Source of the DNA: Microgenomates group bacterium GW2011_GWC1_46_15
GTDB lineage: Bacteria; Patescibacteriota; Microgenomatia; UBA1400; UBA12028
NCBI GenBank assembly: GCA_001002285.1
Contig: LCLX01000001.1
Span: forward strand, 316,895 to 380,894
Length of the DNA: 64,000 bases
Direction: 5' to 3'
Position numbers and translations under genes: made by a program. Numbering within the stretch: the stretch's first letter is position 1; each line of letters begins with the position of its first letter. The notes under the pieces are model-generated. The model saw only the letters and a list, made by a program, of their open reading frames with translations. It had not been told where the DNA came from and did not search any database. Shown here one piece after another: positions 1-38,532 of this stretch.

Positions 1-555
1 AAGAATGAAGTTGGGTTGGCGACGGGTCTTGCGTGGACGCCCGTTGGCGGTGACGTCTTGTTTATTGAAGTTGCATTGATGGATGGCAAAGGGAACGTAA
101 TTTTAACGGGCCAGCTTGGAAAAGTGATGCAGGAGTCCGCGCGCGCGGCACTGACATACGTAAAAGCCAACGCCACAAGCCTTGGTATCTCGAAAAGTAA
201 GCTCACAAAGACCGATATTCACGTTCACGTTCCTGAGGGTGCGGTACCTAAAGACGGACCGTCTGCTGGTGTAACAATGACAACCGCGATGATTTCGGCG
301 TTCACGAACACGCCGATTAAAAAAGATGTTGCGATGACAGGAGAAGTAACGCTCCGTGGCAAAGTGTTGGAAATCGGCGGGCTCAAAGAAAAAGTGATTG
401 CCGCGCACCGTGCCGGCATTACGCACGTGATCGCGCCTGAAGCAAACAAAAAAGACATGCGCGAGATTCCGGAAAAAGTGCAAAAAGATATTACGTTCCA
501 CTTTGCGTCAACGGTGAAAGACGTGCTTTCTTGGGCGCTTGCGAAGAAAAAGTAA
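1..555 (+). CDS. lon: Lon protease, C-terminal proteolytic (S16) domain. The gene is partial: its 5' end lies upstream of the window.
   Basis: ORF 16..555 continues in frame to the window edge. It carries the Lon catalytic Ser motif [11 protein letters not shown] and the downstream conserved [19 protein letters not shown]. Confidence 0.8.
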
Positions 556-558
556 AAA

Positions 559-1656
559 TTATTTTTCCCGCGTGATCACAAACTGTGCAAGCTCAATAAG
601 AAGTGATTTTTGGTGGGATTCTGGCAGTGATGCAAGCGCTGTGACTCCTTTTTGCACACACTCCACCGCGCGTGTTTTACTGTACTCCAGCGATCCCGTT
701 TTTTGCACAATATCCTGCACTTTTTTCAAGTCCTGCTCTGTAAGATTTGATCCAAGCACGTTTTGAAGGAACACTTTATCTTCTTCTGTCGCGGTTTTAT
801 ACGCGTGTTGAATCAACAATGTTTTCTTTCCCTCGCGGACATCGTTTCCAACGGCCTTGCCGGTTTTTTCAGGATTGCCAAATAGTCCAAGAACATCATC
901 ATGGATTTGAAACGCGGTTCCAACCTGCATGCCGTACTCGCGCAGCGGTTTTTCATACTCTTTCCGCTTTCCCGCTAAAATCGTTCCAATCAGTAAGGGT
1001 CCAACAAACGTGTACTGCGCGGTAACTAAGTTCAATCCTTTCACAAACCGTTCTTCCGTTGCGTTTTCTAGAGGTTCCCAGTTTTGCATCATGTGGATTT
1101 TCCACCCCGTCGCGGTATCCTGGAACATTTCCTTGTTCATCACACCAAGGCTTTCCAGGATGCGTTCAGCGGGGAGTCCTGAAGTTCGCATGCACTCGTG
1201 CGCGTATGAGAACAGCAAGGCGCCGGCAATCTCACTAAAGGATCGGGCGTAATGAGGGCGCTGATCTTCCGGCAAGTTTTTCAATACCAATTTGTACTCT
1301 TCCTCGAGCGTTGGACCACCGTGCCGCACTGTATCACGGTCAACCATGTCATCGAGGCTCAATATATAGAAATGAAGCATATCCAGCGCCGTGCACGCCC
1401 GCAAGATATGTTTTTGGTCTTTTCCACCCATCATGGTATATCCAATCCAGCACAAAAACGGCCGGGTTCGTTTCCCCCCACGGAGCATGAGCTCTTCCAA
1501 CACATCAACCATTTCCTCAAGTGTTTTGTCAGTTTTCTGCGCCTCTTTCCGCTTTTCGGCAAAAAACGCGGTCAACTCACCGTTAATTTGTTGAGAAAAA
1601 GCGTGAAGTTCTTCTGCAAGACGGTGCTCAAGAACCTGTGTGCGTTGCGTATTCAT
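559..1656 (-). CDS. Polyprenyl (isoprenyl) diphosphate synthase (trans-IPPS, GGPP/FPP synthase type).
   Basis: 365 aa with two Asp-rich motifs: DDMVDRD (first DDxxD) and FQIHDDVLG (second DDxxD). Convergent with lon, with a 3 nt gap. Confidence 0.85.
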   Translation of the reverse strand: MNTQRTQVLEHRLAEELHAFSQQINGELTAFFAEKRKEAQKTDKTLEEMVDVLEELMLRGGKRTRPFLCWIGYTMMGGKDQKHILRACTALDMLHFYILSLDDMVDRDTVRHGGPTLEEEYKLVLKNLPEDQRPHYARSFSEIAGALLFSYAHECMRTSGLPAERILESLGVMNKEMFQDTATGWKIHMMQNWEPLENATEERFVKGLNLVTAQYTFVGPLLIGTILAGKRKEYEKPLREYGMQVGTAFQIHDDVLGLFGNPEKTGKAVGNDVREGKKTLLIQHAYKTATEEDKVFLQNVLGSNLTEQDLKKVQDIVQKTGSLEYSKTRAVECVQKGVTALASLPESHQKSLLIELAQFVITREK

Positions 1657-1773
1657 AGTATCGGTAGTATACTACCCTCCTAGTATTCGAGTGCGCTTCT
1701 CGTTCTGTGATAGATCTACGTTATCGTGTGAGATCCGTGAGTGTGAAGCATTCAGGAAAGAAGGTGAATATTC

Positions 1774-2142
1774 ATGGATCAAAACAATAAAAAGTTGTTC
1801 GTAGGAAACCTTGATTACACTGTTACATCAGAAGACATCAAGGAATTTTTCTCCCAGTTTGGAACCGTTACAGATGCTATCGTTTTAACCGATAAGTTTT
1901 CTGGACGCTCCAAAGGATTTGGATTTGTCACATTCGAGACGGAAGACATGGCGACAGCAGCGGTTAACGCGGCTAACGAAATGGAGTTCAAGGGAAGAAA
2001 GCTGAACGTTTCTATTGCCAAACCACCCAAACCAAGAGAAGATCGCGGTTTTGGAGGCGGAGGAGGCTATAACAGAGGCGGAGGCGCAGGCGCAGGAGGA
2101 GGAAGTAAGTTCTCAAGAGGCGGTGGAAGAGGCGGATACTAA
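1774..2142 (+). CDS. RNA-binding protein with an RRM domain and a Gly/Arg-rich (RGG) C-terminal tail.
   Basis: RNP-2 motif LFVGNL and RNP-1 motif KGFGFVTF. C-terminal GGGGGYNRGGGAGAGGGSKFSRGGGRGGY. A GAAGGTG Shine-Dalgarno precedes the ATG. Confidence 0.85.
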   Translation: MDQNNKKLFVGNLDYTVTSEDIKEFFSQFGTVTDAIVLTDKFSGRSKGFGFVTFETEDMATAAVNAANEMEFKGRKLNVSIAKPPKPREDRGFGGGGGYNRGGGAGAGGGSKFSRGGGRGGY

Positions 2143-2165
2143 ACTTTATTAGCAACGCAAATAGA

Positions 2166-2188
2166 GCCCCCGCGAAAGCGGGGGTTTT
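2166..2188 (+). terminator. Rho-independent terminator after the RRM gene.
   Basis: Perfect 7-bp GC stem CCCCCGC-GAAA-GCGGGGG followed by TTTT, 24 nt after the stop codon. Confidence 0.7.
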
Positions 2189-2204
2189 GGTATGATAGGG
2201 TGTT

Positions 2205-3224
2205 ATGCGGCAACGACTTCTCTTTCTTAGTGTGTTTCTTTTTTCATTCATCATGAGTTTGGCGTGGTTTGTGTATATTCAACCATTTTTCCGTGTTTCT
2301 CAACTGAACTTGCGCACTGTCGTAGCAGGTGTACAGACAGGACTGAACCAAAACGTTCGTCAATGGAACGGCCGAGTAAACTTTCTCATCCTTGGGACGG
2401 ACGATATTGAGGGAAGAAACGGCTCGGGCATATTAACAGACACAATGATTGTACTTTCGCTGAATGTACATACAGGAAAAGGCGTGTTGATTCCCGTGCC
2501 CCGCGATCTCTGGCTTGCTGATGAGAAAACAAAAATCAACGCAATGTACTACTATGGAAAAACAACCAATCCTGCTCATCCGGAACAGCGGTCGGCCGAG
2601 GCAGTCAGCGTGGTGCTTGGTGTACCAATACAGTACACAGTAGTTACACAACTCCAAACGATCTCAGAAGTGATTGACGCGCTCGGCGGTGTGGACATTC
2701 ATGTTCAAAAAACATTTACCGACGCGATATTCCCACGCGAAGGCGTTGATGTTACTAAAGAGAAAGATCCAAATGTTTTGTATGAAACGGTTACGTTTAC
2801 CGAAGGCGACCACCGCATGTTGGGCAAAGAAGCCTTGCAGTACATGCGTTCCCGCCACAGCACGGACTTAGAAGAAGGAACGGATGACGCGCGTTCCCGC
2901 AGGCAGGAGCAGGTCATGTACGCGGTTATTGGCGCGGTCAAACGTGAAGTTCAACATAAAAACGCACTGGCGCTTGGCAAGCTTTTTGCGATCTATGAGA
3001 AAAACTTTAGTCAAGAGTTGCCCCTTCCCGATCTCGTTGCTCTGGCAAAAACAATGAAAACAAACCTTGTCCACATCGAGTTGAAGCAACACACGATCAT
3101 GCCGCTTTTGGTGCATCCAGCAGTGGCGAAGTACAAACAGTGGGTGTATGAACCCATTGATCCAACCTGGCAAAAGATCCATAAAGATGTTTCTTTGGCC
3201 CTTTTTGGTACAATAGCCGAATGA
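2205..3224 (+). CDS. LytR-CpsA-Psr (LCP) family glycopolymer-to-peptidoglycan phosphotransferase.
   Basis: N-terminal TM segment, then the LCP core VNFLILGTDD...GILTDTMIVLSLN and a conserved R-rich region (RSRRQEQ). Confidence 0.8.
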   Translation: MRQRLLFLSVFLFSFIMSLAWFVYIQPFFRVSQLNLRTVVAGVQTGLNQNVRQWNGRVNFLILGTDDIEGRNGSGILTDTMIVLSLNVHTGKGVLIPVPRDLWLADEKTKINAMYYYGKTTNPAHPEQRSAEAVSVVLGVPIQYTVVTQLQTISEVIDALGGVDIHVQKTFTDAIFPREGVDVTKEKDPNVLYETVTFTEGDHRMLGKEALQYMRSRHSTDLEEGTDDARSRRQEQVMYAVIGAVKREVQHKNALALGKLFAIYEKNFSQELPLPDLVALAKTMKTNLVHIELKQHTIMPLLVHPAVAKYKQWVYEPIDPTWQKIHKDVSLALFGTIAE

Positions 3225-3718
3225 CCGACGTGTATTTCCAGAGTCCAACCAAGGGAAAACAGAGTCTTGCTGGTGTTATCGGCGAGATTGCAGTGTTTTT
3301 GGATGAAGACAGACAAAGCCAATACCGCCTTGTTATTGGTTCTGATTCGCACGAACGCAAACTCGAAGGTAAAAAAGTTTCAAACTTTGTTACAGCAATC
3401 GTGATTCACCGTATTGGCAAGGGCGGGAGGTATTTTTGGCGCAACGGCAGACATGAAAAGATGAACTCGCTGCGGCATAAAATCTATACAGAAACACAGC
3501 TATCTTTGGAGACCGCTGGGATTTTAGTTCCAGAGCTCAACAAACAATTGGTTGGGAATAAGAACTGGGAGTTAGAAATCCACATTGATGTGGGAAACGT
3601 TGGTGATACGCGCGACATGATCAAAGAAGTTGTCAGTATGGTTATTGGCAACGGGTATAAAGCAAAAACAAAACCTGATAGTTTTGGTGCAAGCACGGTG
3701 GCAGATAAGTACACGTAA
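3221..3718 (+). CDS. Hypothetical protein, possibly DUF458/YkuK-like (RNase H-like fold).
   Basis: 165 aa. The motif VIGSDSH...FVTAIVIHRIGKGGRYF resembles the YkuK family as recalled from memory. Overlaps the LCP stop by 4 nt. Confidence 0.45.
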   Translation: MTDVYFQSPTKGKQSLAGVIGEIAVFLDEDRQSQYRLVIGSDSHERKLEGKKVSNFVTAIVIHRIGKGGRYFWRNGRHEKMNSLRHKIYTETQLSLETAGILVPELNKQLVGNKNWELEIHIDVGNVGDTRDMIKEVVSMVIGNGYKAKTKPDSFGASTVADKYT

Positions 3719-3755
3719 AGTATCCAGAGTTTTCAGAATCTTGTACAATATCCAT

Positions 3756-4769
3756 ATGAAACTTCTTGTTACGGGTGGCGCGGGATTTATTGGATCAAAC
3801 TTCGTCTTGTATTGGTTGGCACATCATTCCGAAGATGTTGTTGTAAACTTTGACGCACTTACCTATGCCGGCAACCTTGAAAACCTCAAATCAGTAGAAA
3901 AAAATCCGCAGTACTCTTTTGTGAAAGGCGACATTACCAACCCGCAGGATGTAGAAAAAGCGATGCAAGGAGTTAATATCGTTGTTCATTTTGCCGCTGA
4001 ATCGCACGTTGACCGCTCAATCATGGATCCGTCAACATTCGTCCGCACAAACGTACTCGGAACGCAGGTGTTATTGGAAGCTGCAAAAAAAGTCGGAGTA
4101 AAAAAATTCCACCACGTATCTACTGATGAGGTGTTTGGTTCACTCGAGCTTGGTTCAACGGAAAAATTCAGCGAAACAACCCCCTACAATCCCCATAGTC
4201 CGTACTCCGCATCGAAGGCTGGTTCAGATCATTTGGTGCGTGCGTACCACGACACATACGGTCTTCCAATTACCATTACAAACTGTTCGAACAACTATGG
4301 TCCATATCACTTTCCGGAAAAACTGTTTAGCTTAACCATTACAAACATCTTGGAAGGCAAAAAAGTACCGGTCTATACGCCAGGAAACCATGTTCGCGAC
4401 TGGCTCTATGTTGAAGACCACGTGCGCGCGATTGAGATGGTTTTGCAGAAGGGGAAAGACGGCGAAACATACTGTATTGGTGGCATGACGCAGGATGTGT
4501 CTAATCTTGAAGCGGTAAAGATGATTCTCCGTCTTATGGGGAAAGACGACAGTTCGATAGAGCTTGTAAAAGACCGCCCGGGACACGACGTCCGGTACGC
4601 AATTGACTGGACAAAAATCAATACAGAACTCGGGTGGTCCCCGTCTGTTTCTCTTGAGGAAGGACTGCAAAAAACCATTGCATGGTATACTGAACACCGT
4701 GACTGGTGGATGGACGTAAAAAGCGGTACATACGCCGAGTATTACACAAAACAGTACCAAGAACGGTAA
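3756..4769 (+). CDS. rmlB: dTDP-glucose 4,6-dehydratase.
   Basis: MKLLVTGGAGFIGSNF Rossmann start, YSASKAGSDHL catalytic YxxxK, and near full-length similarity to RfbB. The internal ATG at 3756 was chosen over the ORF-track start at 3630. Confidence 0.9.
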   Translation: MKLLVTGGAGFIGSNFVLYWLAHHSEDVVVNFDALTYAGNLENLKSVEKNPQYSFVKGDITNPQDVEKAMQGVNIVVHFAAESHVDRSIMDPSTFVRTNVLGTQVLLEAAKKVGVKKFHHVSTDEVFGSLELGSTEKFSETTPYNPHSPYSASKAGSDHLVRAYHDTYGLPITITNCSNNYGPYHFPEKLFSLTITNILEGKKVPVYTPGNHVRDWLYVEDHVRAIEMVLQKGKDGETYCIGGMTQDVSNLEAVKMILRLMGKDDSSIELVKDRPGHDVRYAIDWTKINTELGWSPSVSLEEGLQKTIAWYTEHRDWWMDVKSGTYAEYYTKQYQER

Positions 4770-4781
4770 ACGAGGAGGAAC

Positions 4782-5306
4782 ATGACGGTCCGTGAGATTA
4801 CAGCAGATTGGCTCAAGACACAAAAATGGCAGATTCAGAAGCCAAATACGGTAACAATTGACGGCGTGTTGCTCAAAGAATTGACAGTTCATTTGGACGG
4901 CCGTGGCGACGTGATCGAGTTGTGGAGTGAAAAATGGTTAAGCGAAGGAGTTGTTAAGCCTGCACACGTATATCAGTCGGCAACGGATTACGGCGTGGTA
5001 AAGTGCTGGCATTTGCATGAAACGCATACCGATCAGTTCACCGTTACGCGTGGAAAACTCCAGGTGAGCATGGTTGATGTCCGCGAAGGGTCCCCCACTT
5101 TTGGACACGTAAACACGGTTATTCTTGGCACAACCAAGCCGCGGTATCTCAAGATTCCAAACGGCATTATGCACGGATGGAAGTCGCTTGCTGAACCAGA
5201 AACACTTGTCGTCAATTTACAGTCGCACGTCTATGATCCAGCTGACGAACTCAAATTTCCATGGGACACAGTGCTGACCGAAGTGTGGCAGCCATTAAAC
5301 GGATAA
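4782..5306 (+). CDS. rmlC: dTDP-4-dehydrorhamnose 3,5-epimerase (cupin).
   Basis: VDVREGSPTFGHV matches the RmlC VDIRKGSPTFGQW block. DGRGDVIELW and GVVKCWHLH match the RmlC DERGFF and RGLHFQ regions. Confidence 0.8.
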   Translation: MTVREITADWLKTQKWQIQKPNTVTIDGVLLKELTVHLDGRGDVIELWSEKWLSEGVVKPAHVYQSATDYGVVKCWHLHETHTDQFTVTRGKLQVSMVDVREGSPTFGHVNTVILGTTKPRYLKIPNGIMHGWKSLAEPETLVVNLQSHVYDPADELKFPWDTVLTEVWQPLNG

Positions 5307-5310
5307 TCCA

Positions 5311-6195
5311 ATGAAAAAAACACCTCTTCTCCCGCTCGTTGGCACGGGGCTTTCTGGTCTGGTCGGCTCGAAGTTTGTTGAAATGTTTGCCAAAACATAT
5401 GCGTGTACGAATCTTGACCTTACCGTTGGCGTAGATATTACAAACGAGTCGCAGGTGATGAAAGCGGTTGAAAAATCTCCAGCAGATGTTGTGATTCATT
5501 TTGCCGCATTTACCGACGCAACAGCCGCATGGCGGCAAACGGGAGATAAAAACGGTTTGTGCTACAAAGTGAACGTTGACGGAACGCGGAACATTGCAAA
5601 AGCTGCGCATGCATTTGGGAAGCACTTCATTCATCTCTCCACGGCGTTTGTATTTGATGGAGAGAAAGACACGATGTATACAGAAGATGATGCAACAAAT
5701 CCCGTTGAGTGGTATGGGGAAACAAAGGCGATGGCCGAGGATATTGTGCAAAACACCTGTTCCAGTTGGACAATTTTTAGAATTGATCAACCATTCCGCA
5801 GTGATGTATTTGAAAAAAAACCCGATACCGCACATCGGTTGATTACAGGCCTTACACAAGGAACGTTATACCCACAGTTTATTGACCACTGGTTTTCACC
5901 AACCATTTTGGAAGATTTTAGCCGAGTGTTAGACTGGGCGGTGCAGGACAAGCCACAGGGAATATTTCACGCGACCTCCGGGGTAAAAGTGAGCGATTTT
6001 GAGTACGCGACGATGATTAAGGAAGCGTTACATATAGACGGGGAGATCAAGCAAGGAAAGTTAGCTGAATATCTCCACACAATAAACCGGCCGTATCAAA
6101 AAAATACCGCGATGTCCTCAGAAAAACTCAAGTCCGAAACAAATATTGCGTTCACGCCTTTGCATCAGGCGCTTGAGCAGTTGAAGATGGTGTAA
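5311..6195 (+). CDS. rmlD: dTDP-4-dehydrorhamnose reductase-like SDR.
   Basis: RmlD-like layout: Gly-rich N-terminus, VIHFAAFTDA, HLSTAFVFDG, and a YGETK YxxxK motif. No rmlA is adjacent. Confidence 0.7.
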   Translation: MKKTPLLPLVGTGLSGLVGSKFVEMFAKTYACTNLDLTVGVDITNESQVMKAVEKSPADVVIHFAAFTDATAAWRQTGDKNGLCYKVNVDGTRNIAKAAHAFGKHFIHLSTAFVFDGEKDTMYTEDDATNPVEWYGETKAMAEDIVQNTCSSWTIFRIDQPFRSDVFEKKPDTAHRLITGLTQGTLYPQFIDHWFSPTILEDFSRVLDWAVQDKPQGIFHATSGVKVSDFEYATMIKEALHIDGEIKQGKLAEYLHTINRPYQKNTAMSSEKLKSETNIAFTPLHQALEQLKMV

Positions 6196-6203
6196 AACAA
6201 TGA

Positions 6204-6863
6204 TTATTGAATAAGAAGAAGGTTATACACAAAGAATCCACCGATCAACGCATGTGATAGAGAAATAGACACGATATTTCGGTATTTTATAAAGTTAATC
6301 TCCCAGAGAATACCTAAAAGTAAAGCTACAATCGTAATAAAGAAGTTTTGGAGTGGAAGATGAATGAACATGAAGATCAAGGATGTATATGCAATAAGGA
6401 AATATTTATTTTGCGAAACTAATTGTAAACGAGATGTAAGAAATGCTCTGAATAAGAGTTCTTGAAGTGGAGCAGACACAATGAAATAGGTAAAGACCAC
6501 ATGAAGAAAAGGATTTGTGATACTCAATATATTTCTCATGCTATTTAATGTATGAATGTCGAATATTGAAGGGAAATACCTAAATGTTATAAATATGATA
6601 AATATGCATAAGATAGTAGGAAGAATTAAACTCCGCATAGATTGTAGAAAGTTTCGCAAAGACAGTCCTAATTTTTTCTGTGATATTCCAACTGTTTTCA
6701 TGACAAAAACTAGGTAAGGAAGAGCAATAATCATCGCAATTGTTCTAAAACGATACAAAGAAGGATGAACTTTTAGGATGACTAAAGGAAGAATAAAAAG
6801 AAAAATTGTTTCCAAAAAGAGAAATAGTTTATTACCGTATAATCTTGTGAAAGAGTAATGCAT
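6204..6863 (-). CDS. CPBP family intramembrane metalloprotease (CAAX protease/Abi-like).
   Basis: Polytopic protein with QELLFRAF (EExxxR motif), FMFIHL (FxxxH) and SHALIGG (HxxxN/G-like). The gene is markedly low in GC (about 33%) relative to its flanks. Confidence 0.7.
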   Translation of the reverse strand: MHYSFTRLYGNKLFLFLETIFLFILPLVILKVHPSLYRFRTIAMIIALPYLVFVMKTVGISQKKLGLSLRNFLQSMRSLILPTILCIFIIFITFRYFPSIFDIHTLNSMRNILSITNPFLHVVFTYFIVSAPLQELLFRAFLTSRLQLVSQNKYFLIAYTSLIFMFIHLPLQNFFITIVALLLGILWEINFIKYRNIVSISLSHALIGGFFVYNLLLIQ

Positions 6864-6865
6864 AT

Positions 6866-7519
6866 TTATTTTTGGACGAATTCACCCTTTCGCCAAGCAA
6901 GAATGTTTTTGTGGTTTCCAGAAAGTAGCACTTCTGGGACGTTCATACCTTTATACTCTTCCGGCCGCGTGTACTGCGGATACTCAAAATATCCCGGACT
7001 ACTGTGTGATTCTTCTTTTGTACTTTCATCATCGCCGAGCGCGCCGGGAAGTAAACGCACAATCGAGTCCACCATCACCATCGTTGGAATCTCCCCGCCG
7101 GTTAACACATAGTCACCAATCCGCACCTCTTTGTCTACCAAAAGTTGGGCAACGCGCTCATCAACGCCTTCATAGTGGCCGCAGATAAACACAAGCCGCT
7201 TGTACTGTACGTAAGCCTGGGCGGTAGACTGGGTGTAGAGCTCGCCTTTTGCCGATGTAAGAATAATGAGTTCCCCCGGCATTCCTTTTTTTGCTTTAAG
7301 CGCTTTGAGGGCGGTATCAATGGGTTCAATCATCATCACCATACCTGGGCCACCGCCATACGGCCGGTCATCGGTTGTCTTGTGCGCATCCGTTGTCCAC
7401 TGGCGCAAATCATGGACGGCCACGGAAACAAGCCCCTTTTTCTGCGCGCGGGCAAGAATGCTCTCGGTAAGCGGGCCGGTAAACATTGAGGGAAGTGTGG
7501 TAAGAATGTCGATCTGCAT
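6866..7519 (-). CDS. trmD: tRNA (guanine37-N1)-methyltransferase.
   Basis: MQIDILTTLPSMF start and DDRPYGGGPGMVMM SAM-binding knot motif. The start was moved from the ORF-track 7552 to the canonical MQIDIL. Confidence 0.9.
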   Translation of the reverse strand: MQIDILTTLPSMFTGPLTESILARAQKKGLVSVAVHDLRQWTTDAHKTTDDRPYGGGPGMVMMIEPIDTALKALKAKKGMPGELIILTSAKGELYTQSTAQAYVQYKRLVFICGHYEGVDERVAQLLVDKEVRIGDYVLTGGEIPTMVMVDSIVRLLPGALGDDESTKEESHSSPGYFEYPQYTRPEEYKGMNVPEVLLSGNHKNILAWRKGEFVQK

Positions 7520-7552
7520 ACCCTGTATTATACCGTCTACGTTTGATATCAT

Positions 7553-10285
7553 GTGGACATGACTTTAACGATGATCGGCACGGGTTTTGTGGGCGTTGTT
7601 TCCTCGGCGGTGTTTTCTTCTTTTGGAAACACAGTATATGGGCTTGATGTTGTTGAGGAGAAAATTGAGAAGCTCAAACGCGCCGAAATCCCCTTTTATG
7701 AACCAGGACTAAAAGAGTTGGTTGAAGAACAAATAAAAAAGGGCAATCTTCACTTTACAACGTCGTACCAAGAGGCAATTTCAGGTTCTGATGTTGTTAT
7801 TCTCGCTGTTGGAACTCCTTCTGCTGCGGATGGCCAGGCAGACTTAAAGTTTGTGTTTGCCGCGTGTGAAACACTTGCTCCGTTTTTAAAAGAAGGAGCC
7901 ATTGTTGCGATTAAAAGCACCGTACCTCCCGGAACGAATGCAAAAGTTGAACAGATTATTCGTGAAAAGACTCATGTGAAGTTCTTTACTGCGTCGTTGC
8001 CAGAGTTTTTGAAAGAAGGAACCGCGGTACAAGACACATTGCACCCGGATAGAATTCTCATTGGTGCGACAGACGCATCTGTTATTGAAAAATTAAAGAC
8101 GCTTCACGCCTCCTTGGGGGCTCCAGTCCTTGTGATGAAGCCGGAAAGCGCGCAAATGGCCAAGTATGCGGCCAATGCGTATCTCGCTACCCGCATCACG
8201 TTTATTAACCAAATTGCCAATCTTTGTGAGATCAATGGCGCCGATGTTTTGGAAGTGATTCAGGCGATTGGACAAGATAAACGAATTGGGGGCCATTATT
8301 GGTATCCCGGGCTTGGATATGGGGGGAGTTGTTTCAAGGGGAACGAAACAGTTTTTATGCTCAATAGTCCACGCGTGGCTCCTAGACGCTTGGATGAAAT
8401 TTTTCAGAAAGCAAATGAGTCAACTTCGATCGGTCGAGTCGAAGTTCGAGAAGCAAAAGATGCACGCGTACTGGCGTTTGACCTTCACACGGGAAATCCT
8501 ACTATTGCAGATGTACATGCGATAACCCGGCGACCATATCAAGGAGATATGGTGAAGATCACAACAAGTATGGGACGTTTGTTACACATAACTTCAGATC
8601 ATCCAGTTGTTCTTCGCGCCGAAAATACATTTATCATAACGCCTGCCTCACATGTTTCTGAGGGAGATCAGGTTATGGCACTTATGGAACTTCCAAAAAC
8701 TGAACGTACGACGGAACTGAACTTAATCGAGTTACTGCGGGGGACAAAGTTAGAAAAAACTGTGTACGTTTCTTCCATCGACGCATCTTTCGAGCAACAA
8801 TACCCGATATTTGTTCACCATATTCCAAAAAATATGCTCCATTACCCGCTGGAAATAAAGAAACATAACAGAATGTCACTAACACTCTTTCGTTATTTAG
8901 AAGAGCGCGGAGTACTTCACATTTCTTCCAAGAAACTTCAGGTATACACGGCAAAGGGAGCGGCAACAAAAATAAATGCTGTCATTTCCATTGATCAGGA
9001 CTTCATGCGGCTTTGCGGATACTATCTTGCAGAGGGATATATTGGCCTCGATGTAGGAAGGGTTGGCGCCCTGCGCAGCAGAATAGGGTTTTGTTTTAGT
9101 GAACGAGAATATGAATATATTTCCGATACCTGCGGCATTCTTAAACGCTTAGGAATGAAATATATTCAACGACATGCCACACACGCTATAACGACGATCG
9201 TGTCCTCACGAGTTTTTGCATGGGTGTTTCGTGATGTTTTAAAGATGGGGGTGCGTTCTGAGGATAAATCATTACCGCGAATTGCGTTTAATGTGCCGGA
9301 AGAATTACGTTTCGAACTTGTTCGTGGGATGTTTAGCGGGGATGGAGCGGTGACGAAAGTACAAAAAGGCCGCAATATGTTTTTTGAGTATGCAACAGTA
9401 AGTAAGTCACTTGCGGATGGAGCGGCATTTCTCTTGCAAACACTTGGTATCGTATCCTCTATTCGTGTACGCATGATGAACAAGTCTAAACATCAGGCAT
9501 ACATTCTTCGCATCAATGGATATCAACAAATGAAACAACTTATGAATGTGTTTGGAGAAAAACGACGGGATCAAATTCAAACAATACTTGCCGGTTATCA
9601 AAAACATATTAAGCAAAGCGGTTTTACACGATGCGGACCTTATACACTGCTCCGTGTCCAGAAAATCGAACGGGAAAAAGTTGATACCTTTGTGTATAGT
9701 TTGGAAACGAGTACAGGTACACTTATTGGTTCGTCCGGATTAATCGAACATAATTGTTTCCCCAAAGATGTGAAAGAGTTGGCCGCTTATGCCAAAGGAA
9801 TTGGTCAAAATGGCAATCTTATGGTCAAAGTAAGCGAGTTGAACGAAGAGCGGCCTTTAGCACTATTAGAGCGGTACGAGAAGCAAATCGGCGGTTGGGA
9901 AGGAAAAACGGTTGGTATACTCGGCCTTTCCTTTAAACCGAACACAGATGATATGCGGGAAGCTCCGAGTACGAAAGTTATTCCATATTTGTTGACAAAA
10001 AATACTCACATGAAAGCATACGATCCATTGGCGACAAAAACTGCTCAATCGTGGTTTCCCCAGTGGAACATAGAATATACTCAATCAACACAAGAAGCAT
10101 TGAAAGATTCGGATATTGTCATGCTTCTTATTGAGTGTGAAGAGTTTATTTCACTCTCCGTTTCTGACATTGCCGCCGGTATGAAGAAAGGCGGATGGTT
10201 TATTGATGTTCGCGACCAGTTTGCATCCAAGCGGAAAGAGTTCGACCAATACGGTATTCACTACATCGGGGTTGGCATTTCATGA
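7553..10285 (+). CDS. ugd: UDP-glucose 6-dehydrogenase precursor carrying a 475-aa intein. The mature enzyme would be about 435 aa.
   Basis: N-terminal IGTGFVG dinucleotide-binding fold. The catalytic motif GYGGS|C...HN|CFPKDV is split by the intein. The C-terminal UDP-sugar dehydrogenase domain resumes after 9755. The true start may be the internal M at 7559 or 7571. Confidence 0.85.
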   Translation: MDMTLTMIGTGFVGVVSSAVFSSFGNTVYGLDVVEEKIEKLKRAEIPFYEPGLKELVEEQIKKGNLHFTTSYQEAISGSDVVILAVGTPSAADGQADLKFVFAACETLAPFLKEGAIVAIKSTVPPGTNAKVEQIIREKTHVKFFTASLPEFLKEGTAVQDTLHPDRILIGATDASVIEKLKTLHASLGAPVLVMKPESAQMAKYAANAYLATRITFINQIANLCEINGADVLEVIQAIGQDKRIGGHYWYPGLGYGGSCFKGNETVFMLNSPRVAPRRLDEIFQKANESTSIGRVEVREAKDARVLAFDLHTGNPTIADVHAITRRPYQGDMVKITTSMGRLLHITSDHPVVLRAENTFIITPASHVSEGDQVMALMELPKTERTTELNLIELLRGTKLEKTVYVSSIDASFEQQYPIFVHHIPKNMLHYPLEIKKHNRMSLTLFRYLEERGVLHISSKKLQVYTAKGAATKINAVISIDQDFMRLCGYYLAEGYIGLDVGRVGALRSRIGFCFSEREYEYISDTCGILKRLGMKYIQRHATHAITTIVSSRVFAWVFRDVLKMGVRSEDKSLPRIAFNVPEELRFELVRGMFSGDGAVTKVQKGRNMFFEYATVSKSLADGAAFLLQTLGIVSSIRVRMMNKSKHQAYILRINGYQQMKQLMNVFGEKRRDQIQTILAGYQKHIKQSGFTRCGPYTLLRVQKIEREKVDTFVYSLETSTGTLIGSSGLIEHNCFPKDVKELAAYAKGIGQNGNLMVKVSELNEERPLALLERYEKQIGGWEGKTVGILGLSFKPNTDDMREAPSTKVIPYLLTKNTHMKAYDPLATKTAQSWFPQWNIEYTQSTQEALKDSDIVMLLIECEEFISLSVSDIAAGMKKGGWFIDVRDQFASKRKEFDQYGIHYIGVGIS
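8330..9754 (+). other. Intein (Hint splicing domain plus LAGLIDADG homing endonuclease), inserted in frame in ugd at the catalytic Cys.
   Basis: Cys1 (TGT at 8330) and block B LHITSDHPV (TxxH). Two LAGLIDADG-like motifs: LCGYYLAEGYIG and LVRGMFSGDGAV. It ends ...SSGLIEHN at 9754, with the +1 extein Cys at 9755. The extein junction reconstitutes the canonical GGSCFPKD motif. Confidence 0.85.
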
Positions 10286-11223
10286 AAATTCTTGTTACCG
10301 GCGCCTCCGGTTTTGCGGGCTCCCATCTGATTGAAGCATTAAAATCAGCCGGCCAGTCCGATATATACGGGACGGCATATGGAAACTCAAGTTATTTGGC
10401 GACGCTTATCCCCGAAGATCATATTATCAAAGTGAACTTGACGGATGCTGAGGCAACATTCACACTTATCGAAAAAGTCCAACCAGACCAGATTTACCAT
10501 CTCGCAGCATTTGCATTCGTCGGTGAAAGTTTTGACCGCGCTGCCGAACTTATGCAGAACAACATTGCTTTGCAGTTGAACATGTTGGAGGCGGTGCGCA
10601 AGTCTGCGCCCAAAGCGCGGCTTCTCGTCATTGGTTCTGCCGAAGAGTATGGGCTGAGCACAAAAGAGACGGAAAAAATCAATGAAGAACACCCATTTCG
10701 GCCAGTGAATCCATACGCGGTATCTAAAATAGCGCAAGATTTGTTGGGATACTCATACCAGGTTTCATACGGTCTTCAAGTGCTTCGCGTCCGCCCATTC
10801 AATCACATCGGTGAGCGCCAAACACCGGATTTTGCCATTCCCGCATTTGCCAAGCAAATTGTGGAGATAGAACGGGGGAAAAGCAGCAGCCTCAAAGTTG
10901 GCAATCTTGACGGCGTGCGTGATTTTACCGATGTGAAGGATATGGTGCGTGCATACATGACTATCATGGAAAAAGGAACGGTTGGCGAGGTGTATAACAT
11001 CGGAACCGGCATCGGGGTCAAAATGAAAGACGTTGTAGATAAGTTGGTTGCGTTGTCTACAGCAAAAATCCAGATTGAAGTAGATCAAACCCGCATGCGC
11101 CCACTTGATATTCCTTCGATTGTTGCTGATGCGTCTAAAATCATGGCGCTTGGGTGGAAACCAGAAATAGTACTAGATGAGACTCTAAAGAGGGTGGTAG
11201 AATATTGGAGAGTACAGAAATAA
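10282..11223 (+). CDS. NAD-dependent epimerase/dehydratase SDR, likely a GDP-4-keto-6-deoxy-D-mannose reductase (Rmd) or Fcl-like.
   Basis: MKILVTGASGFAGSHL N-terminus and YAVSK YxxxK motif. It lies in an operon with gmd and overlaps the ugd stop by ATGA. Confidence 0.55.
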   Translation: MKILVTGASGFAGSHLIEALKSAGQSDIYGTAYGNSSYLATLIPEDHIIKVNLTDAEATFTLIEKVQPDQIYHLAAFAFVGESFDRAAELMQNNIALQLNMLEAVRKSAPKARLLVIGSAEEYGLSTKETEKINEEHPFRPVNPYAVSKIAQDLLGYSYQVSYGLQVLRVRPFNHIGERQTPDFAIPAFAKQIVEIERGKSSSLKVGNLDGVRDFTDVKDMVRAYMTIMEKGTVGEVYNIGTGIGVKMKDVVDKLVALSTAKIQIEVDQTRMRPLDIPSIVADASKIMALGWKPEIVLDETLKRVVEYWRVQK

Positions 11224-11232
11224 GGAGGATGT

Positions 11233-11676
11233 ATGGTTTCGCTTGTTTCGCCCGAACTTGATGCGCAGATTAATGAACTTCATAAACTCGTTGAACCTTT
11301 ACGCGAAAAAGTTGAGAAATTGAGAGAGTTACGGAAAAATGCTCCCGAAAGCATGAAGCGTGGCGATGGATATGTTCATGAAATTTCAGAGATTATTCAT
11401 GCAAAAGACCTTCGGGTTGAAGAAATTGTTCAACAACTTGAAAAACTGAAAACAGCTATTCGTGGTGATGAAGTGTTGCTGGAGAGTTATCGTGATGCAT
11501 TTTTGGATAGAATTGCAAAAGAGAAACAGAATCTTATTGAGGATGGAAAAAAGATATTGGAAATTCAGCCAGATGAAGCTGCACTTCAGACATTTTTGGA
11601 AAATGAAATTAGGGGATCAAGGTATCCAGTCACGTCAATTGTGGGGTATTTTTCCCCAACAGAAAGCGACGTCTAA
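11233..11676 (+). CDS. Hypothetical coiled-coil protein.
   Basis: 147 aa, charged and helical with heptad-like Leu/Glu/Lys content. A strong AAGGAGG Shine-Dalgarno sits 5 nt before the ATG. It lies between the reductase and gmd. Confidence 0.55.
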   Translation: MVSLVSPELDAQINELHKLVEPLREKVEKLRELRKNAPESMKRGDGYVHEISEIIHAKDLRVEEIVQQLEKLKTAIRGDEVLLESYRDAFLDRIAKEKQNLIEDGKKILEIQPDEAALQTFLENEIRGSRYPVTSIVGYFSPTESDV

Positions 11677-11726
11677 TATAGAAACCCCTAGGAATTTGCA
11701 AAATCTGCTGTAGGAAAAAATAGCAT

Positions 11727-12698
11727 ATGCCTAAAAAAGCACTTATCACTGGCATTACCGGCCAAGACGGCTCCTACCTCGCCGAGTTTCTCCTCGAAAA
11801 AGGATATAGCGTGTACGGCCTTACCCGTCGCACGAGCACGCAGAACTTTGAGCGCATTAAACACATCATTCACGACGTTGAACTTGTTTCCGGTGACCTC
11901 ATTGACCAGCACTCCATCACGAACGCCGTTCACACAATTCAACCGGATGAGGTGTATAACTTAGCCGCGCAGAGCTTTGTTCAGGCATCTTGGGAACAGC
12001 CAGTGTTGACTGGCGAGTTTACCGCACTTGGTGTTACACGTGTCTTGGAAGCCGTGAAGCTTGCCAAACAGGACGCCAAGTTTTACCAAGCCTCGAGCTC
12101 CGAAATGTTCGGCAAAGTGTTAGAAACACCGCAGAAAGAAACGACACCATTCTATCCCCGCTCGCCGTATGGTATTGCCAAAGTATATGGTCACTGGATC
12201 ACGGTGAACTACCGCGAGTCGTTCAACATGTTCGCGTGTTCAGGCATATTGTTTAACCACGAGTCGCCGCGGCGTGGGCTTGAGTTTGTAACGCGTAAAA
12301 TCGCAAACGGTGTTGCGCGGGTAAAGTATGGTATGCAAAAAACCATTAAACTTGGCAATCTCGAATCAAAACGTGACTGGGGATATGCTCCGGACTACGT
12401 CGAGGCAATGTGGCTCATGCTTCAGCAAGATAAACCGGATGATTTTGTGATCGCAACGGGAGAAACACACTCCGGCAGTGAATTTCTCGAGGAAGCGTGC
12501 AAAGTTGTGGGGATTTCGGATTGGAAAGCGGTGTACGAGCATGATGCCAAGTATGATAGGCCGGCGGAGGTTGATTTTCTCATTGGTGACGCGTCAAAAG
12601 CGAAAAAAGTTCTCGGGTGGTCCCCCAAGACGAGTTTCAAAGACCTTGTCCGCATTATGGTTGAGGCAGAGTTAGAATCGGAAAAGAATCAGACCTAA
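11727..12698 (+). CDS. gmd: GDP-mannose 4,6-dehydratase.
   Basis: [23 protein letters not shown] start, [14 protein letters not shown] (YxxxK), and full-length Gmd similarity. Confidence 0.9.
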
Positions 12699-12748
12699 GA
12701 GTCTGCTTGAAAAGTCGCATCTTCACTTGGTCCAAAAGACATGGAATA

Positions 12749-13969
12749 ATGACACCTATGAAGATTTCGCGTGTAGTCATGATCATTCCAACGTACAACG
12801 AAAAAGAGAACATCTCTAAACTTATTCCGGTGCTTCAACAGGTTTTTTCCCGCGTTCCTAAAAAATATGAGATGCACATTCTGATTGTTGATGATAGTTC
12901 TCCCGATGGAACGGGAAATGTTGTTGAAAAGTTTTCACTGTCGAATAAAAACGTTCACTTGTTGACGAATCCAAAAAAAGGCGGATTGGGTGCGGCATAC
13001 ATGCGCGGGATGACCGAGGCGTTTGGTCCACTCAAAGCAGATCTTATTTTTGAGTTTGATGCGGATTTTTCGCACGATCCAGAAAAAATTCCGGAGTTTT
13101 TGCAGAAAATTGATGAAGGGTATGAGTTTGTCCTTGGTTCACGGTATATTCCCGGTGGTTCTATTCCTCCCAACTGGGGGTGGCACCGGAAGTTTCTCAG
13201 TATCTACGGCAACCTGTTTATTAATTTGGTATTGACGACGTTGGCTGTTCACGACTGGACAACAGGATACCGGGCGATTACTAAAAAAGTGTACATTGCC
13301 GTCCGCGATGAAATGAAAGGTGAACGATTTACCGGATATACCTGGCAAATTGGATTTCTGCACAAAGCAATGCGGAAAGGATTCAAAATTACCGAAGTGC
13401 CGTTCAAGTTTGTTGATCGTACAATGGGACACTCAAAACTCGGTGCGGAGTACATTAAAAATACGTTTATGTATATCGTAAAAGTGCGCTTGCAGGAAAT
13501 TTTTGCGATGCGCGTATTTAAGTTCGGCATGGTAGGTGGATTGGGATTTGTCATTAACACGCTTGGTTTGTTTCTTTTTAGCAGACTTCCGGTTGTTGTA
13601 TCGCTCTCAAATGCGTTATATACCACGACGAAACTCAGCATGGTAAATGTTTCGGGATTGGCGGCGGCACTTGGTGCGGAGTGTGCGATTATTTCAAACT
13701 TTACATGGAACAACCTGTGGACATTCCACGACAGAAAGCTTACAAGTGCGTGGAGCATTTTTCCAAAGTTTATTCAGTTTAATCTTGCCTCGTTTGGCGC
13801 AGTTGCCATTCAATTTTTAGTTGTTGGTGCGGGAACCGCGGTAACGGGACAAACAACATTTTGGCGGTTTTTCTGGCTCGTTGTGGCAACGGCAATAGGA
13901 ATGGTGTTGAACTATATTGTCTATAGCACATTTATTTGGAAAGTAAAAAAACCACATCCTGCAGTATGA
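12749..13969 (+). CDS. Polyprenyl-phosphate sugar synthase (GT2, DPM1/GtrB-like) fused to a C-terminal GtrA-like flippase domain.
   Basis: IIPTYNE...VDDSSPDGT...FDADFSHDP GT2 DPM-type motifs. The C-terminal four-helix region has FKFGMVGGLGFVINTLGLFLF and NFTWNNLWTF, the GtrA signature. The ORF-track start is 12707. Confidence 0.75.
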   Translation: MTPMKISRVVMIIPTYNEKENISKLIPVLQQVFSRVPKKYEMHILIVDDSSPDGTGNVVEKFSLSNKNVHLLTNPKKGGLGAAYMRGMTEAFGPLKADLIFEFDADFSHDPEKIPEFLQKIDEGYEFVLGSRYIPGGSIPPNWGWHRKFLSIYGNLFINLVLTTLAVHDWTTGYRAITKKVYIAVRDEMKGERFTGYTWQIGFLHKAMRKGFKITEVPFKFVDRTMGHSKLGAEYIKNTFMYIVKVRLQEIFAMRVFKFGMVGGLGFVINTLGLFLFSRLPVVVSLSNALYTTTKLSMVNVSGLAAALGAECAIISNFTWNNLWTFHDRKLTSAWSIFPKFIQFNLASFGAVAIQFLVVGAGTAVTGQTTFWRFFWLVVATAIGMVLNYIVYSTFIWKVKKPHPAV

Positions 13970-15471
13970 AGAAGTCTTACCTCTTTTTAGTGATTTTAAT
14001 GCTAATTGCTTCTTTTGTCCGATTTTTCCGGTTTACCGATTATCTCGAGTTTTTAGACGATCAAGGACGTGACGCGATTGTGATGAAGCGTATTCTCATA
14101 GATCACGATTTAACATTACTTGGTCCGGGTACGAGCGTTGGAAACATGTATCTTGGCCCACTCTACTACTATGCGATGACGCCGTTTTTGGCGCTCACAT
14201 ATCCCGATCCCACTGGTCCCGCATATGGAATGGCGCTACTCGGGGTTATGACGGTGGCACTCGTCTTTCTTTTGGGTAAGGAAATGGTTGGTGAACGTGC
14301 TGCTGGCATGGCGGCACTGCTGTATGCAACTGCGCCTGTCGTCATGCATCTTTCGCGATTTAGCTGGCAGCCCAATCCCGCGCCGTTTTTTGGTTTACTC
14401 ATGATGTGGTGCACGTACCGCGCGCTTAAAGGAAAAACATGGTATTGGTTGGGAGTTGGACTGAGTTTTGCGGTCATGACACAACTGCACTATGTTGCGA
14501 TGCTGACGCTTTTTCCTTCCGCGATGTTGTTTTTGTATGATGCGTGGAAACATCCAAAGAAACGCACAACGCATATTCAGATTGCCCTGTTGTCATTTTT
14601 CGCTGTTTTTCTTGTGTTTTCTCCTTTGATTGCGTTTGATCTTCGCCATGACCACCTTATTCTTAAAGGTTTCCAAGAGTTTCTTACTTCCCAGCACCAA
14701 ACCTCGCCTCTTTCTGACAGGATCGCACGATTCTTTCTCGATTTGCACGGGCGTGGACTACAAACCATTGTGGAAACACTGGGACTGCCGCACACCACAA
14801 TGACCGACCGCGAAGTAAATACAATACTGCTTGTAGTGTTTATTGTGAGCGCTATTTTTATTGCGTATACAAGAGTGAAAAAGAACAAAAATAGCACGGC
14901 GGAACTCATACTCTATGTATGGATTGGTATGACGATTATCGGGTTGTGTATGTATAGGAACACGGTATATCCACATTATTTTGCATTTCTTTTCCCTGCG
15001 ATATTTCTCGTTACAGGAATGATTTTTGCACACCTTGCATCGTTGCGGAAGTTTTTACTGCCGGTTGTATGGGGTGTTGTTGCGCTCCTTGCATTGTTAA
15101 ACGCTGGACAACTGAGCATTTGGCGCCACAAAGATTCTGACATGAAGCTTTTCCGCACGATTGTCCAGGATATTTCTTCCTCAATTAAGCCAGGAGAACG
15201 ATATAACCTTGCGCTGCTGAACTCGAACAGGGAATATCGTGCGATGAAGTACCGCTACTTTTTTGAGGTAAGCGATAAACAACCGCAGTCACAGTATGAC
15301 TACATGAATTTGGATAAACTTATTGTTGTTGTAGAGAACGGTGAACAGCCATTGAAAGCACCCATTTTTGAAGTGCAACAATTTATGCGCGAAGTCAAAA
15401 AACCAGTTCTACTGACAAAGAAAAGTTATCAGGGTAAGATTATAGAAGTGTACGTTTTTTCGAGAAAGTAA
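13966..15471 (+). CDS. GT-C fold polytopic membrane glycosyltransferase (PMT/ArnT-related, DxD-loop type).
   Basis: About 500 aa and multi-TM, with a first periplasmic loop LDDQGRDAIVMKRIL and PGTSVGNMYLGPLYYY. Its start overlaps the upstream stop as ATGA. It has paralogs at 56521 and 58027(-). Confidence 0.65.
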   Translation: MKKSYLFLVILMLIASFVRFFRFTDYLEFLDDQGRDAIVMKRILIDHDLTLLGPGTSVGNMYLGPLYYYAMTPFLALTYPDPTGPAYGMALLGVMTVALVFLLGKEMVGERAAGMAALLYATAPVVMHLSRFSWQPNPAPFFGLLMMWCTYRALKGKTWYWLGVGLSFAVMTQLHYVAMLTLFPSAMLFLYDAWKHPKKRTTHIQIALLSFFAVFLVFSPLIAFDLRHDHLILKGFQEFLTSQHQTSPLSDRIARFFLDLHGRGLQTIVETLGLPHTTMTDREVNTILLVVFIVSAIFIAYTRVKKNKNSTAELILYVWIGMTIIGLCMYRNTVYPHYFAFLFPAIFLVTGMIFAHLASLRKFLLPVVWGVVALLALLNAGQLSIWRHKDSDMKLFRTIVQDISSSIKPGERYNLALLNSNREYRAMKYRYFFEVSDKQPQSQYDYMNLDKLIVVVENGEQPLKAPIFEVQQFMREVKKPVLLTKKSYQGKIIEVYVFSRK

Positions 15472-15482
15472 CGAGAATAACT

Positions 15483-16265
15483 ATGCAGTCAGCGAAAACA
15501 TCAGTAAGAATTTCAGTCATTTTGCCCTCATACAACGAGATGCAAAATATTTCCCGCGGTGTTCTTGATGAGGTCTATGCCTATCTTGAAAAACAATCAT
15601 ATAGTTGGGAGATTGTTTTGACTGATGATGGTTCAACGGACGGAACGTTGGATGCGTTATACGCGTTTGAAAAAACACACGACCATGTAATGGTGATAAA
15701 CAATCCGCATCAGGGAAAAGGCCCAACTGTTGCGAATGGAATGTTGGCGGCACGTGGGAAACTCCGGCTGTTCTCCGATTTTGACCAAGCAACGCCGATT
15801 CATGAAGTTGAGCGCCTTCTGCCTTTTTTTGATGACAGATACGATATAGTAATCGGTTCACGCGAAGTTCAGGGGGCGCGGCGGGAAAAAGAACCGTTTC
15901 ACCGCCATATTATGGGAAAGGGATTCAACCTTTTTGTGAAGTTGTTTACTGTCCGTGGCATCCAAGACACGCAGTGTGGATTCAAAATGTTTACAGATCA
16001 GGCCGCCAAAACGCTGTTTCCAATGTTATCTGTGTACAAAGCAGGGAATGTCCGCGGCGATGCATTTACCGGCGCGTTTGATGTTGAACTGTTATACATT
16101 GCAAAGAAAAAAAACCTCAAGATCGCTGAGGTCCCTGTGTTTTGGAAACATATTAAAACAAATCGCGTTGACCCGATCAAAGACTCTACGCGCATGCTGA
16201 TTGATCTCGTCAAAATACGCTTTTCAGACATGCTGGGGGCGTACTCCGAAACACGAAAACAATGA
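15483..16265 (+). CDS. GT2 glycosyltransferase, DPM1/Alg5-like polyprenyl-phosphate glycosyltransferase (soluble).
   Basis: ISVILPSYNE, LTDDGSTDGT, and the DxD-like FSDFD. 260 aa with no TM segments. Confidence 0.75.
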   Translation: MQSAKTSVRISVILPSYNEMQNISRGVLDEVYAYLEKQSYSWEIVLTDDGSTDGTLDALYAFEKTHDHVMVINNPHQGKGPTVANGMLAARGKLRLFSDFDQATPIHEVERLLPFFDDRYDIVIGSREVQGARREKEPFHRHIMGKGFNLFVKLFTVRGIQDTQCGFKMFTDQAAKTLFPMLSVYKAGNVRGDAFTGAFDVELLYIAKKKNLKIAEVPVFWKHIKTNRVDPIKDSTRMLIDLVKIRFSDMLGAYSETRKQ

Positions 16266-17461: not shown

Positions 17462-17473
17462 TGTTCAGAATTA

Positions 17474-18262: not shown

Positions 18263-18286
18263 TATATATCGTGTTAGAATAACTGT

Positions 18287-19765: not shown

Positions 19766-19783
19766 CCAGGGTAAAATACTGGT

Positions 19784-22871: not shown

Positions 22872-22873
22872 GA

Positions 22874-24919: not shown

Positions 24920-24927
24920 GGAGACTG

Positions 24928-27760: not shown

Positions 27761-27764
27761 TGTG

Positions 27765-29462: not shown

Positions 29463-29503
29463 ATCTTGTAGGATACCATGGAACTACACTATACTATAGA
29501 GGC

Positions 29504-32342: not shown

Positions 32343-32348
32343 ACTACG

Positions 32349-36088: not shown

Positions 36089-36205
36089 GTAAGAAAATTA
36101 TACTCCATCTCTGGGGTATGCAGTGTGGGTGTATCGGGCTTTACACAAAACAGTGTAAGATGAGTAGTTGGATGTGGAAGCCTAATTAGGTCCTTTTCAG
36201 TTTAA

Positions 36206-37148: not shown

Positions 37149-37167
37149 CTTCCGAAAAGGAGACTTT

Positions 37168-38522: not shown

Positions 38523-38532
38523 AGGAGCATCT

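Follow-up and report, generated by a model that had tools for sequence, protein, structure and literature searches.

A predicted bifunctional intein and LAGLIDADG homing endonuclease at the catalytic cysteine of UDP-glucose 6-dehydrogenase in a Microgenomates group bacterium

Results

The ugd gene and its insert

The DNA examined here, called the window throughout, is a stretch of 64,000 nucleotides of contig LCLX01000001.1 (positions 316,895 to 380,894) from Microgenomates group bacterium GW2011_GWC1_46_15. The subject of this report is its gene for UDP-glucose 6-dehydrogenase (ugd), the coding sequence of which is interrupted by what we interpret as an intein carrying a LAGLIDADG homing-endonuclease domain. 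In window coordinates, the parts of the gene are as follows:

7553..10285, + strand: ugd precursor open reading frame (ORF), 910 codons from GTG 7553, UDP-glucose 6-dehydrogenase interrupted by the intein
7553..8329, + strand: N-extein, the NAD-binding domain and most of the central domain, ending ...GLGYGGS
8330..9754, + strand: intein, 475 amino acids (aa), Cys1 to Asn475
9755..9757, + strand: +1 Cys codon TGT, splice-junction nucleophile and Ugd active-site cysteine of GGSCFPKD
9755..10285, + strand: C-extein, the rest of the central domain and the UDP-binding domain; stop codon 10283..10285

Translation of the insert gives 475 stop-free codons that begin CFKGNETVF... and end ...SSGLIEHN. 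The insert is in frame and lies at codon boundaries, with junctions that read ...GLGYGGS / CFKGNE...LIEHN / CFPKDVKEL. An earlier note on this DNA, made from its letters alone, had placed a 475-aa intein at 8330-9754, and both boundaries proved exact. Searches of the 910-aa ORF against Pfam place the UDPG_MGDP_dh_N and central domains (residues 3-182 and 198-264) before the insert and the dehydrogenase C domain (residues 788-889) after it, so that the three-domain architecture of the host is matched in full (PF03721, PF00984 and PF03720). The NCBIfam nucleotide-sugar dehydrogenase model TIGR03026 scores 402 bits on the precursor, against a cutoff of 189.8, and the precursor also gives long partial NCBIfam matches to archaeal intein-containing proteins. 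Removal of the insert in silico restores GYGGSCFPKD, as had been predicted, and the 435-aa spliced sequence that we examined aligns with the Ugd structure 4a7p over residues 4-433 (E = 1.3e-95), gap-free at the junction. For annotation, the 910-aa ORF should count as an ordinary Ugd that carries a removable element, not as a fusion or a pseudogene.

Translation could start at GTG 7553, which is conserved in a relative described below (L079) as well, or at ATG 7559. Because the closest Ugd homologues are 433 aa in length, with their start at the ATG that matches window position 7559, the precursor is probably 908 aa and its spliced product 433 aa rather than 435 aa. The 435-aa product given in the earlier note is thus a contiguous Ugd when counted from GTG 7553, but the starts of the homologues favor the shorter form.

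The intein lies between the Ser of GGS and the Cys of CFPKD, immediately before the motif cysteine. The cysteine of GGSCFPKD is, as we take from established knowledge, the catalytic nucleophile of UDP-glucose dehydrogenases, acting via thiohemiacetal and thioester intermediates. It had been proposed that the +1 residue of the intein is this catalytic cysteine itself; the position in the motif is confirmed here, whereas the catalytic role comes from that established knowledge. Variants in which the cysteine is changed to alanine lose in vivo activity (PMC9927302, which has Campbell et al. 2000 and Rocha et al. 2011 in its reference list). Since 475 residues part the catalytic Cys from the preceding half-motif, the precursor is expected to be inactive, with the insert wedged in its active-site loop, and Ugd activity would need splicing. 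No second ugd was found within the window by tblastn and a family hidden Markov model (HMM) run on all six-frame ORFs. The assignment of UDP-glucose, as opposed to other nucleoside diphosphate (NDP) sugars, as the likely substrate is made by homology; the NCBIfam equivalog models TuaD and AglM fall under their cutoffs on this Ugd.

Domain anatomy, conservation and predicted fold

The insert can be divided into splicing and endonuclease parts:

8330..8704, + strand: N-terminal Hint (splicing) subdomain, residues 1-125, matching the PolII and TFIIB mini-inteins
8330..8332, + strand: block A, Cys1, within the N-terminal Hint subdomain
8591..8602, + strand: block B, TSDH (T88-S-D-H91), residues 88-91
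8705..8974, + strand: linker or DNA-recognition-like region, residues 126-215, with approximate boundaries drawn from secondary structure; the least conserved domain
8975..9619, + strand: LAGLIDADG homing-endonuclease domain, residues ~216-430
9011..9037, + strand: LAGLIDADG motif 1, LCGYYLAEG, residues 228-236, acidic residue E235
9317..9346, + strand: LAGLIDADG motif 2, LVRGMFSGDG, residues 330-339, acidic residue D338
9620..9754, + strand: C-terminal Hint subdomain, residues 431-475, with block F (VYSLETSTGT) and block G (SSGLIEHN)
9749..9754, + strand: His474-Asn475, the intein C-terminus

The C-terminal stretch, VYSLETSTGTLIGSSGLIEH474-N475, spans blocks F and G and is followed by Cys +1. 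On the insert, the Pfam model LAGLIDADG_3 (PF14528) scores 63-65 bits (cutoff 22.5), Intein_splicing (PF14890) 39.1-41.3 bits (cutoff 35.8), and the NCBIfam model TIGR01445 (intein_Nterm) 27.7-28.4 bits (cutoff 24.5). These matches are not due to chance. The earlier reading of the insert as an intein with Hint blocks A, B and G is borne out by these profiles and by the presence of Cys1, T88/H91, H474-N475 and Cys +1, and the two LAGLIDADG motifs it named are likewise found, as LCGYYLAEG and GMFSGDG.

In an alignment of 13 family sequences, C1, T88, H91, E235, G236, D338, G339, H474 and N475 are invariant, as are many further residues of the nuclease domain. Column conservation is highest in the endonuclease domain, at 0.78 versus 0.71 for the N-terminal Hint subdomain. 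The ratio of nonsynonymous to synonymous substitution (dN/dS) in the endonuclease domain is ~0.04-0.16, as low as in the splicing domain, in the 12 of the 14 closest family pairs for which dS was computable, which indicates purifying selection on the endonuclease. Both measures describe the family and not the window copy alone. The window copy shares all of the conserved residues, and its endonuclease is probably active.

An AlphaFold2 model of the intein, built on the same 13-sequence alignment, has a mean pLDDT of 90.3 and a pTM of 0.89. In this model, beta-rich residues 1-118 and 432-474 flank an alpha/beta core, and helices 223-235 and 324-338 terminate exactly at E235 and D338. A Foldseek search of the Protein Data Bank (PDB) with the model placed PI-PkoII (2cw7) first (E = 4e-33), followed by TliVMA, PI-PfuI, PhoVMA and PI-SceI; lower matches were mini-inteins, which cover the splicing part, and, over the nuclease part, I-DmoI and I-OnuI. 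A sequence search of the PDB agrees, with the intein matching PI-PkoII and the PolII and TFIIB inteins.

Relationship to described inteins

Inteins of this type have been known in archaea since the 1990s, and the allele described below as 'udp' bears the InBase name 'UDP GD'. UDP-glucose dehydrogenase is among the intein hosts that have been reviewed (PMC2874743), and Soucy et al. 2014 list a 'udp' intein allele in UDP-glucose 6-dehydrogenase in seven Halobacteria, six other Euryarchaeota and two bacteria (PMC4071816). Named hosts include Methanocaldococcus jannaschii (NP_248048), other Methanococcales and Thermococcus gammatolerans, the two bacterial hosts being Dictyoglomus and Fervidibacteria, and the diversity of the allele suggests that it is old, with rare long-distance transfers (PMC4071816). 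The earlier note had left out this prior knowledge, and the type was already known from the 'udp' allele.

Our archaeal comparison rests on one member, recovered by the profile search described below: P0202, a 901-aa protein of Methanothermococcus sp. Ax23 that is a nucleotide sugar dehydrogenase by name. Its 460-aa intein begins at residue 259 (IGYGGS/CFHP...IHN/CFPKD) and is 36% identical to the window intein over 411 residues (E = 7e-89; profile E = 7e-109). The two share the host enzyme family, the GYGGS/C insertion point and a closely similar first motif (LIGYYLAEG versus LCGYYLAEG in the window), but the window intein has a Candidate Phyla Radiation (CPR)/Patescibacteria host and falls in a Chloroflexota-dominated bacterial clade. 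Because the site is identical and the inteins are homologous, the window intein falls within the allele family of the archaeal 'udp' intein and is a new member of it, from a CPR-type bacterium.

PI-PkoII, the intein of the Thermococcus kodakarensis DNA polymerase, is the best sequence match in the PDB (E = 3.7e-19) as well as the best match in fold (TM 0.62-0.69). Like the window intein, it consists of a Hint domain into which a linker and an endonuclease with two LAGLIDADG motifs are inserted. However, its host is a family B DNA polymerase, its target is another one, it is 537 aa long, and structure-aligned identity is 20%. Inteins in the paralogous UDP-ManNAc and UDP-GlcNAc dehydrogenases belong to the same family by profile search (E = 1e-90 to 1e-33), sit directly before the catalytic Cys and form precursors of ~900 aa. 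They differ in host subfamily and in the flanking motif (GGH/C...HN/CIPVDP), and therefore the target DNA of their endonucleases must differ. PI-SceI, the yeast VMA1 intein, also joins an intein to a LAGLIDADG endonuclease and has Cys1, the terminal His-Asn and Cys +1. It is matched by the window intein model at E ~1e-13, but is eukaryotic, lies in another host protein, is 11-14% identical and superposes poorly over its whole length.

Distribution of the intein family

A word-indexed search that covered 5.8 billion proteins and used only the intein as query returned 79 matches, all but one of which are UDP-glucose dehydrogenases or fragments of them (78 of 79), the best being ~60% identical. 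Every junction visible among these matches is identical (GGS/C...HN/CFPKD). Full-length inteins of the family are 475-490 aa long, and versions of 178-358 aa are without part or all of the endonuclease. A second scan, in which each prokaryotic species was represented by one genome, yielded 219 loci, and 63 of the best 78, which were inspected, hold a complete in-frame intein of 401-495 aa at the same GGS/C site. The hosts are mostly Chloroflexota (Ktedonobacteria, Anaerolineae and Thermoflexales), with scattered others labelled Planctomycetota, Proteobacteria, Acidobacteriota and Abditibacteriota.

The best match in the species scan (L001) comes from a groundwater metagenome-assembled genome of Candidatus Paceibacterota, in which the intein is 65% and the extein 70% identical to the window. 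Gene order is similar there, with a 908-aa ugd precursor followed by a gene of the short-chain dehydrogenase/reductase (SDR) type, and a minus-strand ORF of ~220 aa stands in the place of trmD, to which it is putatively equivalent. Across the other hosts, identity to the window averages 57% for the intein and 41% for the extein. Greater similarity between phyla in the intein than in the gene that houses it is what horizontal movement of the intein is expected to leave. In a neighbor-joining tree, which carries no support values, the two CPR inteins pair inside the bacterial clade. The window intein has a GC content of 42% and a third-position GC content (GC3) of 0.36, both near the host values. 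Chloroflexota genomes are generally higher in GC, and if this holds for their inteins as well, the cross-phylum step would not have been recent.

The family reaches beyond Ugd. When 1.84 billion cluster representatives were searched exhaustively with a profile, 166 matched at E <= 1e-30, 146 of which were new. In at least 72 of the 146, the intein immediately precedes the catalytic Cys of a nucleotide-sugar dehydrogenase, some of them of the Ugd type (GGS/CFPKD) and others of the UDP-ManNAc/GlcNAc-dehydrogenase type (GGH/C...HN/CIPVDP), and eight more lie in a PurL-like protein, named phosphoribosylformylglycinamidine synthase in the source, at the site YGN/C.GVPT. The relatives in these paralogous dehydrogenases and in the PurL-like protein come from P0207-P0292 and similar and from P0216-P0239. 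A single intein lineage has colonised several hosts.

Decay was also seen in the family. Some ORFs are broken across the intein or called as two proteins, some inteins end in Asp-Asn and not His-Asn, and mini-inteins of 178-278 aa have the endonuclease deleted. Decayed members are L062, L065, L066 and L069, P0045 and P0064 (on one 597-kb contig), L043 and L048, and P0050-P0058.

An intein-free relative and the empty site

Distribution among close relatives is patchy. The 120 closest Ugd homologues listed (58-98% identity) are 366-488 aa in length, nearly all of them 426-451 aa, and are too short for a precursor of ~908 aa; the intein is thus absent from all 120. The closest homologues are from Patescibacteria, which together with L001 assigns the window to a bacterium of the CPR/Patescibacteria type. 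The best match (P0080) is an intein-free Ugd that is 98% identical to the spliced window protein and is encoded on L079, a metagenome contig in ENA. L079 is collinear with window positions 1..13041 at ~90% nucleotide identity, and within ugd the alignment breaks only at the intein (window 8325/9755), giving an exact empty site:

Reconstituted intein-free site of the window: GGATAYGGNGGNAGY/TGYTTYCCNAARGAY, also given as GGATATGGGGGGAGT/TGTTTCCCCAAAGAT
Intein-free junction site of L079: GGATACGGAGGTTCC/TGCTTCCCCAAAGAC
8209..8329, + strand: upstream half of a patch of mostly synonymous differences, including the Ser(-1) codon
9755..9922, + strand: downstream half of the patch of mostly synonymous differences from L079

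Nucleotide identity to L079 is 94% in the block of trmD and the N-extein, 90% in the block of the C-extein and the downstream gene, and 96% over ugd itself. The 56 differences within ugd are not evenly distributed: 34 fall within a 289-nt stretch that spans the junction (-121 to +167) and the other 22 are spread over 1013 nt, a clustering with a Fisher p of 2e-10. Near the junction, 31 of the 34 are synonymous, compared to 13 of the 22 elsewhere in ugd. This scar looks like a gene-conversion tract left by homing gain, or like precise loss by recombination, and the patch in L079 could be a cleavage-resistant target. At Ser(-1), the window, L001 and four intein-free relatives use the codon AGT, and L079 is the only one with TCC. 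When the 56 sites were polarised with L001 and the same four relatives, whose proteins are 68-75% identical, silent sites were found to be saturated. Derivation of the junction flanks of the window from an L001-like donor is not supported: at the near-junction sites L001 equals the window at 8 and L079 at 15.

Additional short patches of low divergence from L079 are present at 1801..2200, 3801..4000 and 4601..4800. The mosaic divergence suggests frequent recombination between these populations.

Discussion

Interpretation of the insert

Taking the anatomy, fold, insertion site and conservation together, we interpret the insert as a bifunctional class-1 intein plus LAGLIDADG homing endonuclease of the PI-SceI/PI-PkoII type, with a probability of roughly 0.9. 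Translation would yield an inactive precursor of ~908 aa, in which splicing would proceed by an N-S acyl shift at Cys1, attack by the +1 Cys to give a branched thioester, cyclisation of Asn475 with the assistance of His474, which would free the intein, and an S-N shift that would ligate the two exteins, giving a 433-aa Ugd in which GGSCFPKD is intact. The freed intein would then act as a site-specific DNase on intein-free ugd sequence coding for GYGGS/CFPKD, and repair of the cut allele off an intein-bearing copy would introduce the intein together with some flanking DNA.

Several points weigh against this interpretation. We infer both splicing and DNA cleavage, neither of which is directly seen. 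Block F has Ser (VYSLET) where many inteins carry Asp, although the Ser is probably tolerated because it is invariant in the family alignment. Gain in the window and loss in L079 both fit the Ser codon, and the saturated silent sites do not separate them. Furthermore, the distal parts of ugd (7601..8200 and 9923..10225) are only 0-3% diverged from L079, versus ~9-10% for the surrounding genes. A single homing event leaves this low distal divergence unaccounted for and so implies additional recombination; it seems that the whole of ugd was recently exchanged between the window and L079 lineages, independently of the junction patch. Finally, no close donor-like relative was found among metagenome contigs by a protein scan or with a degenerate junction pattern. 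Because the best relative of the intein is only 65% identical, ongoing homing in this lineage is not demonstrated.

Alternatively, the intein might splice while its endonuclease is not active for homing, being immobile or kept, for example, for fold stability, with vertical descent only. In favor of this, no near-identical intein is found in other hosts, the host-like GC and GC3 would fit long residence in low-GC genomes, and many family members are mini-inteins that have lost the endonuclease. On the other hand, both catalytic acidic residues and their surrounding motifs are invariant, the nuclease domain is the most conserved and has the low dN/dS given above, and the sporadic occurrence among close relatives, the exact empty site and the junction-centered patch are what mobility predicts. 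We therefore regard an inactive endonuclease as unlikely.

Another consideration is that splicing could be conditional. Redox-gated splicing exists in other inteins with Cys1 and Cys +1. Here both junction nucleophiles are Cys, and the one at +1 also serves the enzyme as its nucleophile, such that a Cys1/Cys+1 disulfide or other redox sensitivity might gate splicing, and with it the supply of UDP-glucuronate, as a post-translational switch. The intein is also highly conserved, above its host across phyla. However, this conservation is equally explained by selection for splicing and homing, and the 120 closest listed Ugd homologues manage without the intein, which argues against a needed regulatory role. 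Conditional splicing is therefore quite improbable in our estimation. Slightly less probable again is a fuller form of the idea, in which the intein would be a redox switch beyond a parasite, with oxidised Cys1/Cys+1 holding the precursor and tying envelope UDP-glucuronate to redox state.

We reject, as having very little chance of being correct, the reading of the insert as a decayed leftover or a product of misassembly, with ugd a pseudogene or the contig chimeric. Some family members do look interrupted or are called as two separate proteins, and a few are without the penultimate His. Here, however, the 2.7-kb frame is intact with the insert in frame and all splicing residues present, an independent Paceibacterota genome has the same architecture, with a 908-aa ORF and the same order of genes, and both exteins match L079.

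The interpretation as a bifunctional intein leaves the current understanding of inteins unchanged. What it adds is an intein at the catalytic nucleophile of a metabolic enzyme and not of a replication protein, and, in the window and L079, a natural intein-plus/intein-minus pair in uncultivated CPR-type bacteria that is usable for measuring homing or loss in environmental populations. The greater conservation of the intein than of its host, together with the sites in paralogues, illustrates that such elements track invariant active-site codons, and the endonuclease would be a meganuclease candidate whose target lies within a near-universal coding motif.

Genomic neighborhood and additional observations

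Upstream of ugd lie rmlB, rmlC-like and rmlD-like genes on the plus strand, followed by trmD on the minus strand. Immediately downstream is:

10282..11223, + strand: SDR of the NDP-sugar epimerase/dehydratase family, 313 aa, with a 4-nt overlap (ATGA) with the ugd stop

Because the start of the SDR gene overlaps the ugd stop, co-transcription and translational coupling of the two are probable. The SDR scores below the cutoff of every NCBIfam equivalog model. It is followed on the same strand by a 147-aa ORF and then by gmd (TIGR01472, 442 bits, cutoff 415), beyond which are GT2/GtrA and several PMT_2-type glycosyltransferase genes, also on the same strand. The assignment of ugd to a sugar-nucleotide operon in the earlier note is therefore roughly right. 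No tRNA gene, a potential integration site, was found anywhere in the window. No further intein was found in the window either, by tblastn and the family HMM on six-frame ORFs or by Pfam on the ten longest other ORFs.

Three segments of the window were noted in passing. First, the ORF between the SDR gene and gmd (11233..11676, + strand, 147 aa) has no family match and differs from its 144-aa L079 counterpart at ~43-45% of nucleotides; the divergent segment extends over 11226..11700, and the flanking genes differ from L079 by ~10%. Within this conserved sugar-nucleotide cluster, the gene has either evolved fast or been replaced. Second, a segment of ~700 bp between the rmlD-like gene and trmD (6192..6892) corresponds to ~5 nt in L079, and is either a recent insertion in the window or a recent deletion in L079. 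An ORF of 219 aa at 6204..6863 on the minus strand encodes an Rce1-like/CPBP intramembrane protease (PF02517, E = 5e-11). Third, 12707..54749 is a long same-strand run of glycosylation genes with GT2-GtrA fusions, at least five PMT_2-type membrane glycosyltransferases, PTPS_related membrane proteins, and several ORFs of 500-760 aa without a family match.

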